DNA of 64,000 nt from Escherichia coli (GTDB lineage: Bacteria > Pseudomonadota > Gammaproteobacteria > Enterobacterales > Enterobacteriaceae), in NCBI RefSeq assembly GCF_041886205.1, contig NZ_CP169030.1, one strand, 5' to 3'. Below are positions 59,180 to 63,665 of the stretch, piece by piece. Numbering within the stretch: position 1 is the stretch's first letter; every line of letters begins with the position of its first letter. The notes beneath the pieces were generated by a model that ran no database searches, was not told the DNA's origin, and worked only from the letters and a program-made list of their open reading frames with translations. A program made the position numbers and the translations under genes.

Positions 59180-59765
59180 TACAAGTGAGACAGTGGTCCC
59201 AGACTGATTATCAGACCAACAACACGAGTGGGACCGTGGTCCCAGACCGATAATCAGACCAACAACACGAGTGAGACAGTGGTCCCAGACTGATTATCAG
59301 ACCGACAACACGAGTGGGACAGTGGTCCCAGACTAATAATCAGACCGGCAATACGAGTGGGATCGTGGTCCCAGACCGATAATCAGACCGACGACACGAG
59401 TGGGACCGTGGTCCCAGACTAATAATCAGACCGGCAATACGAGTGGGACCGTGGTCCCAGACGGATAATCAAACCGACGATACGAGTGGGACCGTGGTCC
59501 CAGACTAATAATCAGACCGACGATACGAGTGGGACCGTGGTCCCAGACCGATAATCAGACCGACAACACGAGTGGAACCGTGGTCCCAAACTAATAATCA
59601 GACCGACGATACGAGTGGGACCGTGGTCCCAGACCGATAGTCAGACAGACGATACGAGTGGGACCGTGGTCCCAGACTAATAATCAGACCGACAACACGA
59701 GTGGGACCGTGGTCCCAGTCTGATTATCAGACCGACGATACAAGTGGAACAGTGGGCCCAGAGAG
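59180..59765. repeat. sopC: sopC partition centromere: about 12 tandem 43-bp repeats each with internal inverted repeat TGGGACCGTGGTCCCA
   Basis: Tandem 43-bp units seen directly, located downstream of sopB. Confidence 0.95.
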
Positions 59766-59849
59766 AATATTCAGGCCAGTTATGCTTTCTGGCCTGTAAC
59801 AAAGGACATTAAGTAAAGACAGATAAACGTAGACTAAAACGTGGTCGCA

Positions 59850-60821
59850 TCAGGGTGCTGGTTTTTCAAGTTCCTTAAGAATGGCCTCAATTTTCTCTAT
59901 ACACTCAGTTGGAACACGCGACCTGTCTAGGTTAAGCACCATTTTATCGCCCTTATACAATACTGTCGCTCCAGGAGCAAACTGATGTCGTGAGCTTAAA
60001 CTAGTTCTTGATGCAGATGACGTTTTAAGCACAGAAGTTAAAAGAGTGATAACTTCTTCAGCTTCAAATATCACCCCTGCTTTTTTCTGCTCATGAAGGT
60101 TAGATGCCTGCTGCTTAAGTAATTCCTCTTTATCTGTAAAGGCTTTTTGAAGTGCATCACCTGACCGGGCAGATAGTTCACCGGGGTGAGAAAAAAGAGC
60201 AACAACTGATTTAGGCAATTTGGCTGTGTTGATACAGCGGGTAATAATCTTACGTGAAATATTTTCCGCATCAGCCAGCGCAGAAATATTTCCAGCAAAT
60301 TCATTCTGCAATCGGCTTGCATAACGCTGACCACGTTCATAAGCACTTGTTGGGCGATAATCGTTACCCAATCTGGATAATGCAGCCATCTGCTCATCAT
60401 CCAGCTCGCCAACCAGAACACGATAATCACTTTCGGTAAGTGCAGCAGCTTTACGACGGCGACTCCCATCGGCAATTTCTATGACACCAGATACTCTTCG
60501 ACCGAACGCCGGTGTCTGCTGACCAGTCAGTAGAAAAGAAGGGATGAGATCATCCAGTGCGTCCTCAGTAAGCAGCTCCTGGTCACGTTCATTACCTGAC
60601 CATACCCGAGAGGTCTTCTCAACACTATCACCCCGGAGCACTTCAAGAGTAAACTTCACATCCCGACCACATACAGGCAAAGTAATGGCATTACCGCGAG
60701 CCATTACTCCTACGCGCGCAATTAACGAATCCACCATCGGGGCAGCTGGTGTCGATAACGAAGTATCTTCAACCGGTTGAGTATTGAGCGTATGTTTTGG
60801 AATAACAGGCGCACGCTTCAT
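59850..60821 (-). CDS. sopB: SopB (ParB-family centromere-binding protein)
   Basis: 323 aa, F SopB sequence. Confidence 0.95.
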
Positions 60822-61987
60822 TATCTAATCTCCCAGCGTGGTTTAATCAGACGATCGAAAATTTCATTGCAGACAGGTTCCCAAATAGAAAGAGCATTTC
60901 TCCAGGCACCAGTTGAAGAGCGTTGATCAATGGCCTGTTCAAAAACAGTTCTCATCCGGATCTGACCTTTACCAACTTCATCCGTTTCACGTACAACATT
61001 TTTTAGAACCATGCTTCCCCAGGCATCCCGAATTTGCTCCTCCATCCACGGGGACTGAGAGCCATTACTATTGCTGTATTTGGTAAGCAAAATACGTACA
61101 TCAGGCTCGAACCCTTTAAGATCAACGTTCTTGAGTAGATCACGAAGCATATCGAAAAACTGTAGTGCGGAGGTGTAGTCAAACAACTCAGCAGGCGTGG
61201 GAACAATCAGCACATCAGCAGCACATACGACATTAATCGTGCCGATACCCAGGTTAGGCGCGCTGTCAATAACTATGACATCATAGTCATGAGCAACAGT
61301 TTCAATGGCCAGTCGGAGCATCAGGTGTGGATCGGTGGGCAATTTACCTTCATCAAATTTGCCCATTAACTCAGTTTCAATACGGTGCAGAGCCAGACAG
61401 GAAGGAATAATGTCAAGCCCCGGCCAGCAAGTGGGCTTTATTGCATAAGTGACATCATCCTTTTCCCCAAGATAGAAGGGAAGGAGAGTATCCTCTGCAT
61501 GAATATGAAGATCTGGTACCCATCCGTGATACATTGAGGCTGTTCCCTGGGGGTCGTTACCTTCCACGAGCAAAACACGTAGCCCCTTCAGAGCCAGATC
61601 CTGAGCAAGATGAACAGAAACTGAGGTTTTGTACACGCCACCTTTATGGGCAGCAACCCCGATCACCGGTGGAAATACGTCTTCAGCACGTCGCAGTCGC
61701 GTACCAAACACATCACGCATATGATTAATTTGTTCAATTGTATAACCAACACGTTGCTCAACCCGTCCTCGAATTTCCATATCCGGGTGCGGTAGTCGCC
61801 CTGCTTTCTCGGCATCTCTGATAGCCTGAGAAGAAACCCCTACTAAATCCGCTGCTTCACCGATTCTCCAGCGCCGGGTTATTTTCCTCGCTTCCGGGCT
61901 GTCATCATTAAACTGTGCAATGGCGATAGCCTTCGTCATTTCATGACCAGCATTTATGCACTGGTTAAGTGTTTCCATGAGTTTCAT
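60821..61987 (-). CDS. sopA: SopA (ParA-family partition ATPase)
   Basis: 388 aa from MKLMETLNQ; Walker A KGGVYKTS. Confidence 0.95.
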
Positions 61988-62289
61988 TCTGAACATCCTT
62001 TAATCATTGCTTTGCGTTTTTTTATTAAATCTTGCAATTTACTGCAAAGCAACAACAAAATCGCAAAGTCATCAAAAAACCGCAAAGTTGTTTAAAATGA
62101 GAGCAACACTACAAAAGGAGATAAGAAGAGCACATACCTCAGTCACTTATTATCACTAGCGCTCGCCGCAGCCGTGTAACCGAGCATAGCGAGCGAACTG
62201 GCGAGGAAGCGAAGAAGAACTGTTCTGTCAGATAGCTCTTACGCTCGGCGCAAGAAGAAATATCCACCGTGGGAAAAACTCCAGGTAGA

Positions 62290-62580
62290 GGTACACACGC
62301 GGATAGCCAGTTCAGAGTAATAAACTGTGATAATCAACCCTCATCAATGATGACGAACTAAACCTCGATCTCAGGTCACATGACGAAGGGAAAGAGAAGG
62401 AAATCAACTGTGACAAACTGCCCTCAAATTTGGCTTCCTTAGCAATCACAGTTCAAAAAGTATGAGAAAGTCCATGCAGGCTGAAGGAAACAGCAAAACT
62501 GTGACAAATTACCCACAGTTGGTCAGAACAAATGTGACGAACCACCCTCAAATCTGTGACAGATAACCCTCAGACTATCC
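62290..62580. repeat. incC: incC iterons of RepFIA (five direct repeats containing TGTGACAAA…CCCTCA)
   Basis: Direct repeats seen immediately downstream of repE. Confidence 0.8.
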
Positions 62581-63330
62581 AGTCGTCATGGAAGTGATAT
62601 CACGGAAGGAAAATACTATATGAGTCGTCTGGCGGCCTTTCTTTTTCTCAATGTATGAGAGGCGCATTGGAGTTCTGCTGTTGATCTCATTAACACAGAC
62701 CTGCAGGAAGCGGCGGCGGAAGTCCGGCATACGCTGGTAACTTTGAGGCAGCTGGTAACGCTCTATGATCCAGTCGATTTTCAGAGAGACGATGCCTGAG
62801 CCATCCGGCTTACGGTACTGACACAGGGATTCGTATAAACGCATGGCATACGGATTGGTAATTTCTTTTGTTTCACTAAGCCGAAACTGCGTAAACCGGT
62901 TCTGTAACCCGATAAAGAAGGGAATGAGATATGGGTTGATATGTACACTGTAAAGCCCTCTGGATGGACTGTGCGCACGTTTGATAAACCAGGGAAAGGA
63001 TTCATAGCCTTTTTCATCGGCGGCATCCTCTTCAGGGCGATAAAAAACCACTTCCTTACCCGCAAAACTCTTCAATGCCTGCCGTATATCCTTACTGGCT
63101 TCCGCAGAGGTCAGTCCGAATATTTCAGCATATTTAGCAACATGGATCTCGCAGATACCGTCATGTTCCTGTAGGGTGCCGTCAGATTTTCTGATCTGGT
63201 CAACGAACAGATACAGCATACGTTTTTGATCCCGGGAGAGACTATATGCCGCCTCAGTCAGGTCGTTTGACTGGACAATTCGCGGGCTATTTTTACGTTT
63301 CTTGTGATTTATAACCGCTGTTTCCGCCAT
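62575..63330 (-). CDS. repE: RepE replication initiator of RepFIA (mini-F)
   Basis: 251 aa, F RepE sequence. Confidence 0.95.
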
Positions 63331-63334
63331 GACA

Positions 63335-63560
63335 GATCCATGTGAAGTGTGACAAGTTTTTAGATTGTCACACTAAATAAAAAAGAGTCAATAAGCAGGG
63401 ATAACTTTGTGAAAAAACAGCTTCTTCTGAGGGCAATTTGTCACAGGGTTAAGGGCAATTTGTCACAGGGTTAAGGGCAATTTGTCACAGACAGGACTGT
63501 CATTTGAGGGTGATTTGTCACACTGAAAGGGCAATTTGTCACAACACCTTCTCCAAAACC
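63335..63560. promoter_or_regulatory. ori2: repE operator (inverted repeat GTGTGACAA…TTGTCACAC) and ori2/incB iterons (four 19-bp repeats GGGCAATTTGTCACAGGGTTAA)
   Basis: Direct repeats seen upstream of repE. Confidence 0.85.
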
Positions 63561-63599
63561 AGCATGGATAAAGGCCTACAAGGTGCTCTAAAAAAGAAG

Positions 63600-63665
63600 A
63601 TCTAAAAACTATAAAAAAATAATTATAAAAATATCCCCGTGGATAAGTGGATAACCCCGGGGGGA
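63600..63665. other. ori2 AT-rich region with tandem DnaA boxes (GTGGATAAGTGGATAAC)
   Basis: AT-rich stretch followed by two overlapping DnaA-box matches. Confidence 0.7.

Follow-up and report, generated by a model that had tools for sequence, protein, structure and literature searches.

The 64,000-nucleotide stretch of Escherichia coli DNA considered here (contig NZ_CP169030.1 of assembly GCF_041886205.1, referred to as a whole as the window) carries on its minus strand, at positions 59161-63654, a module which can with good confidence be read as RepFIA, the basic replicon of an F-like plasmid, together with its partition system. The module should work as it does in mini-F and in bacterial artificial chromosome (BAC) vectors, which are maintained by ori2, repE and sopABC alone. 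The genes of a second replicon, RepFIC, are located near the other end of the window. RepFIA is the only uninterrupted replicon in the window because oriR, the origin of RepFIC, is split by an insertion sequence (IS), and RepFIA is probably a working replicon.

The RepFIA replicon and its partition genes

The listing of open reading frames (ORFs) and a megablast search of PLSDB identify sopB, sopA and repE. With the cis elements included, sopC, sopB, sopA, incC, repE and ori2 follow one another in the canonical order, and all lie on the minus strand:

59161-59762, minus strand: sopC centromere, 14 tandem units of 43 bp (Tandem Repeats Finder, TRF)
59850-60821, minus strand: sopB, ParB-type centromere-binding protein of 323 amino acids (NCBIfam NF010252, 638 bits, equivalog cutoff 274)
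60821-61987, minus strand: sopA, ParA-type partition ATPase of 388 amino acids (NCBIfam NF010259, 872 bits, equivalog cutoff 725); a longer ORF extends to 61996
62010-62092, minus strand: sopAB promoter/operator region with four CTTTGC/GCAAAG motifs and a 19-bp periodic repeat
62326-62570, minus strand: incC with five RepE iterons (62555-62570, 62533-62548, 62500-62515, 62409-62424 and 62326-62341)
62575-63330, minus strand: repE, initiator of 251 amino acids (NCBIfam NF010305, 534 bits, equivalog cutoff 342)
63346-63374, minus strand: repE operator, an inverted repeat AGTGTGACAA/TTGTCACACT unchanged from F, its 10-bp arms lying at 63346-63355 and 63365-63374
63430-63543, minus strand: ori2 (incB) iterons, five copies with start-to-start spacing of 22, 22, 33 and 21 bp
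63430-63451, minus strand: extra iteron unit, a perfect 22-bp tandem duplication of TGTGACAAATTGCCCTTAACCC; which of the identical units is called the new copy is arbitrary
63590-63637, minus strand: AT-rich unwinding region with the 13-mer GATCTTCTTTTTT, one T shorter than in F, as in CP063154
63638-63654, minus strand: two tandem DnaA boxes, TTATCCACT and TATCCACG, identical to F

The anatomy of the canonical RepFIA replicon and the handcuffing model of its control have been described (PMC13028717, PMC11983097). An earlier reading of the window, made from the sequence only, had described sopABC, repE, the incB and incC iterons and the DnaA boxes as intact, and every one of them was found on the minus strand within about 20 bp of where that reading had placed it. 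It had also called the module complete, which holds for ori2-repE-incC-sopABC; ori1, ccdAB and resD/rfsF of mini-F fall past the end of the window, which at position 64000 lies about 350 bp past the DnaA boxes (in F, ori1, ccdAB and resD are situated further on). The canonical description fits in that all parts are there, and departs from the plasmid in two details, namely five iterons rather than four in ori2 and a sopC three units longer than that of F.

The features expected of a RepFIA basic replicon are RepE, the ori2 repeats with the 13-mer and DnaA boxes, the operator, which overlaps the promoter of repE, and the five incC iterons, and each is represented. Pfam supports the NCBIfam assignments of the three proteins. 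RepE contains the Pfam domains Rep3_N and Rep3_C and matches the structures of RepE in the Protein Data Bank (1rep/2z9o, E about 1e-168); compared with F, a single amino-acid change (G104A) is noticed, repE having 15 synonymous and one non-synonymous nucleotide changes. The inverted repeat upstream of repE is taken by us, by what is known of F, to be the binding site of RepE dimers. The iterons of incC, the copy-control and incompatibility locus, agree with F in number and position, with a single substitution at 62515, on the edge of the third iteron. The ori2 elements are backed by alignment to F and by independent repeat finders, and the RepE iteron pattern occurs eight times where 0.8 occurrences would be expected by chance.

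SopA, SopB and 43-bp repeats bearing a 16-bp inverted repeat together make up a type Ia ParABS partition system. Both proteins are 100% identical in amino acids to those of F, all nucleotide differences (13 of 13 in sopA, six of six in sopB) being synonymous, and the sopAB promoter/operator region differs from F by one substitution; its operator role would follow from knowledge of F. In a motif scan the perfect 16-bp SopB-binding inverted repeat TGGGACCGTGGTCCCA was present in eight of the 14 sopC units. The sopC of F has 11 units by the identical scan, and 12 repeats with ten sites are given for it in the literature (PMC6238139). Plasmid CP063154 has the same 14 units as the window by TRF and BLAST; an 86-bp gap that a three-way MAFFT alignment placed in the sopC of CP063154 was discarded as misplaced.

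The whole module shows 97.4-97.5% nucleotide identity to the F plasmid (NC_002483.1) over about 4.5-4.7 kb, and the divergence of about 2.6% is mostly synonymous. Gene order and orientation, SopA and SopB, the number of incC iterons, the operator, the 13-mer and both DnaA boxes are common to the two, and RepE is one residue off; in contrast, the window has five ori2 iterons to the four of F, a sopC longer by three units, an AT-rich stretch shorter by one T and the altered edge base of the third incC iteron. Its lineage has split from that of F under strong purifying selection on SopA, SopB and RepE, because 34 of the 35 nucleotide differences in the three genes are synonymous and only one is non-synonymous (binomial p=8e-21). 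The closest matches in the PLSDB megablast, at 99.5% identity over the 4.5-kb module, are three E. coli plasmids, CP063154 (M7424), CP061338 and CP061340, which share with the window the RepE allele (WP_000852143.1) and the 14-unit sopC, but differ in having four ori2 iterons and in a typing as IncFIA+IncFIB that includes neither FII nor FIC. By megablast, at least 80% of the module is covered in more than 1,361 PLSDB records, and the repE-incC-ori2 core is found at the same coverage (at least 80%) in 1,357 of 5,426 complete E. coli genomes (about 25%). It can be said that the RepFIA module is a known system, common in E. coli and ordinary apart from its rare fifth ori2 iteron.

The mechanism proposed for the module is carried over, step by step, from knowledge of F. 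Monomers of RepE would bind the ori2 iterons and, together with HU and with DnaA at its two boxes, would cause melting of the adjacent AT-rich 13-mer region. Dimers of RepE on the inverted-repeat operator would repress repE, and RepE on the five incC iterons would pair with ori2 by handcuffing or looping, which would hold the copy number at about 1-2. The sopC repeats would be loaded with SopB, and segregation of the plasmid copies would be the task of the SopA ATPase.

The additional iteron of ori2

Neither F nor the closest relatives, which at 99.5% identity have four iterons, contain the 22-bp duplication in ori2. Iteron alleles in PLSDB were counted with a strict full-length megablast, the E-value threshold of which passed only uninterrupted matches. 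By this count 773 records have the four-iteron arrangement, 54 have three iterons, with one 22-bp unit lost, and four share the five-iteron arrangement of the window, which is also met in three of the 5,426 E. coli genomes. The allele of these four records is another one, as three of the iterons bear point changes and a DnaA box is lost; FIB and FII are also present in them. The exact five-iteron allele of the window had no match in the collections searched (PLSDB and the E. coli genomes), and an exact-pattern scan of genome contigs gave no match for three tandem perfect iterons.

In NZ_CP081193.1 (positions 5931-6300) the same 22-bp duplication is accompanied by A>G in two iterons, C>T in a third and a 9-bp deletion removing one DnaA box. 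Plasmids of this kind are not typed as IncFIA by MOB-suite despite a RepE identical to that of F, and their ori2 may be a decaying RepFIA origin. A further plasmid, pEH01-18-02_1 (39 kb), reaches five iterons through a different duplication of 33 bp, comprising iteron 2 and its spacer. It was considered as natural proof that a five-iteron origin suffices for replication and was dropped, as an FII replicon is present there too.

The number of iterons in the RepFIA ori2 is therefore naturally polymorphic (NZ_CP027367.1 of H125 and NZ_CP063519.1 are among the PLSDB records that show this). It presumably changes through slippage, and the duplication in the window appears to have arisen in this way. 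The added 22 bp make up about two turns of the helix, so that the array and its flanking elements stay in phase, and we infer that ori2 with the extra iteron would still be functional; the additional RepE site may slightly strengthen negative control. A bolder proposal, to which only tentative credence is given and which we consider rather unlikely, is that the fifth iteron is a real functional allele shifting the set-point of RepFIA, with a lower copy number, stronger IncFIA incompatibility or 5:5 pairing of ori2 and incC, and that this variant origin carries replication here with the FIC origin knocked out. If this were true, the natural alleles with three, four and five iterons would be a ready allelic series for handcuffing and titration models. 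The polymorphism in iteron number could be used experimentally, and the understanding of the system is unchanged by it.

The RepFIC replicon and its interrupted origin

Next to RepFIA, the window holds a second set of replication genes, in line with the earlier claim of two replication systems, and the plasmid would be typed as multi-replicon; multi-replicon IncF plasmids are commonplace. The second replicon had been named FII. It does belong to the FII family, with CopB, a copA/tap control region and RepA1, but is RepFIC rather than classical FII: local BLAST gives 99.83% identity between window positions 4234-7165 and the RepFIC-hok-finO side of F, and close relatives of the replicon are typed IncFIC by MOB-suite. 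Its parts, and the element that interrupts it, are these:

4808-5065, minus strand: copB/repA2 (NCBIfam NF010256, 134 bits, cutoff 87)
4500-4574, minus strand: tap leader peptide, located downstream of the antisense region copA; relatives carry the annotation tap
4025-4507, minus strand: ORF of 160 amino acids between tap and repA1, its start overlapping the end of tap and its stop overlapping the ATG of repA1 (ATGGCTGA)
3175-4032, minus strand: repA1, IncFII-family initiator of 285 amino acids (TIGR03474, 581.6 bits, cutoff 446.9)
2963-2999, minus strand: proximal piece of oriR, with a DnaA box TTATCCACA (2991-2999) and a further 28 bp, the last of which are one of the two target duplication copies (2963-2970)
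264-2962, minus strand: ISCro1-like element of the IS66 family, 2,699 bp, with tnpA (2232-2909), tnpB (1885-2232) and a transposase gene (294-1865)
60-262, minus strand: distal piece of oriR, with TCNTTTAAA motifs and an AT-rich part; the origin resumes at 254 and runs to about 60

The replicon had also been described as remodelled, which proved apt in two respects, a common one and the splitting of oriR by the ISCro1-like element. The common one is the 160-amino-acid ORF. It matches no Pfam or NCBIfam family and is annotated as a hypothetical protein in relatives, and it has 34% identity to residues 74-170 of RepA1 over 98 amino acids (E=3e-9), so that on sequence comparison it looks like a truncated RepA paralogue. 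The region with this ORF is covered to at least 80% in at least 402 PLSDB records and is a regular feature of FIC-type replicons. The FII-family replicons of R1 and R100 have copB, the copA region, tap and repA1 like the window, but are without a RepA-like ORF between tap and repA1. Homology to F ends inside the ORF, at the point where Tn1000 is inserted in F; the RepFIC of F is truncated by this transposon, whereas the RepFIC genes of the window are complete and it is oriR that is split. A search of the literature for RepFIC, P307 and tap gave no result.

The terminal inverted repeats of the ISCro1-like element are imperfect, and on its two sides, at 255-262 and 2963-2970, stands the 8-bp target duplication CCTTATGA. 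The contiguous oriR expected downstream of repA1 in an IncFII-family replicon, with a DnaA box, a region bound by RepA and an AT-rich part, is found in pMTY3755_IncF, where the two halves adjoin; in the window 2,699 bp of the element lie between them. A strict search of PLSDB found no match to the oriR-IS junction. In CP101952, a plasmid that also carries FIB, the same IS is located about 100 bp further into oriR; this IS next to repA1 was considered as the same insertion and set aside as an independent event. It may be that oriR is a preferred target of the IS. From the sequence arrangement the FIC replicon of the window is probably non-functional, but by analogy with R1 the split oriR might retain some activity, as replication of mini-R1 persists when its oriR DnaA box is scrambled, and at a higher copy number (PMC5883639).

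Typing of the plasmid gives FIA and FIC(FII), yet the origin of one of the two replicons is broken. Replicon typing by gene content alone overstates the number of working replicons, and this matters for incompatibility-based curing and for predicting how stable a plasmid is and which hosts it can have. The ori2 allele with five iterons and the IS private to this FIC origin deserve an annotation and are perhaps material for a copy-number experiment, but they are not surprising.

The replicon that drives the plasmid

RepFIA was proposed earlier as possibly the primary replicon in view of the remodelled FII. This is a reasonable suggestion; RepFIA is the sole uninterrupted replicon in the window and would probably replicate autonomously. 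The word "primary" goes further than the evidence, because the view is limited to the window, the nearest relatives carry FIB, plasmid pEC958 sets a contrary precedent and the split oriR might retain activity. In F itself RepFIA is the working replicon and RepFIC is truncated.

Several points weigh against RepFIA as the working replicon, and most of them lead to the same alternative, somewhat unlikely in our estimation, that RepFIA is kept mainly for its partition function (sopABC) and neighbouring addiction genes, while replication is driven by a replicon outside the window, most likely RepFIB, and the fifth iteron is neutral or mildly harmful under relaxed selection. Support comes from pEC958, which like the window has RepFIA with sopABC partition beside an FII-family replicon. 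Sequencing of transposon insertions (TraDIS) in this FIA+FII plasmid showed that FII drives replication, that FIA serves partition only, that the intact RepFIA replication genes are dispensable, that sopAB is essential and that ccdA matters (PMC4398462). The FII replicon of pEC958 is intact and essential, whereas the FII-family origin of the window is interrupted. The closest RepFIA relatives, being typed IncFIA+IncFIB, carry FIB, and a RepFIB could lie outside the window here as well; CP101952, with its IS in the FIC origin, also has FIB. Further, the inspected plasmids with three or five iterons are multi-replicon (the five-iteron ones have FIB and FII, or FII), and such alleles could mark relaxed selection on ori2. 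The extra iteron, finally, could be an assembly error.

Against a RepFIA retained mainly for partition speak the strong purifying selection on repE relative to F (15 synonymous changes to one non-synonymous) and ori2, the cis elements of which are unchanged save for a duplication that is in phase. Moreover, no further replicon is visible in the 64-kb window, and F, with which the window is collinear, replicates from RepFIA.

Quite unlikely is the possibility that RepFIC still fires. RepA1 made in cis would then act on the distal core of oriR 2.7 kb away, and the plasmid would be a true dual-replicon one, possibly dominated by FIC. The copB, tap, 160-amino-acid ORF and repA1 sequences are all intact and the distal oriR sequence is preserved, and the mini-R1 with the scrambled DnaA box speaks for a certain tolerance of damage to the origin. 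On the other hand, the IS breaks a contiguous oriR of 188 bp, and RepA of R1-type replicons is known for its cis preference for the adjacent origin. Another point against a firing RepFIC is that the plasmid with an ISCro1 inserted independently, about 100 bp deeper in oriR, carries FIB as well.

It is very unlikely that an assembly artefact accounts for the fifth iteron (and perhaps for the number of sopC units) and hides a true origin of four iterons, as the four iterons of the three closest relatives and a methylase gene split by a 1-bp deletion in an A-run (which could signal homopolymer-type sequencing errors) might suggest, because the added unit is exactly 22 bp in a short three-copy array spanned by any read, duplications of the same kind occur in independently sequenced plasmids and a different one of 33 bp in another, and the sopC count agrees with CP063154. 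RepFIA as the basic replicon and partition system in use is the reading preferred here.

The window as a whole, compared with the classical F factor by local BLAST, is collinear with it, and the plasmid is a close relative of F. The tra region (window 7162-41963) has 99.2% identity to that of F, and the leading region (42000-58800) has 90-95%. On these sequence comparisons the plasmid is a mosaic from recombination among F-like backbones, since identity to F is 90-95% in the leading region, 99.2% in tra, 99.8% in RepFIC-finO and 97.4% in RepFIA. The DNA methylase gene mentioned above belongs to the leading region (57204-57886, minus strand); it encodes 227 amino acids in F and is represented here by two ORFs of 66 and 160 amino acids following the 1-bp deletion in an A-run at about 57686, which makes it a true pseudogene unless the deletion is a sequencing error in the homopolymer. 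The finO gene (6997-7608, minus strand) is without the IS3 of F, F positions 1258 and 99159 being joined directly, and because it is uninterrupted the plasmid may be repressed for transfer.

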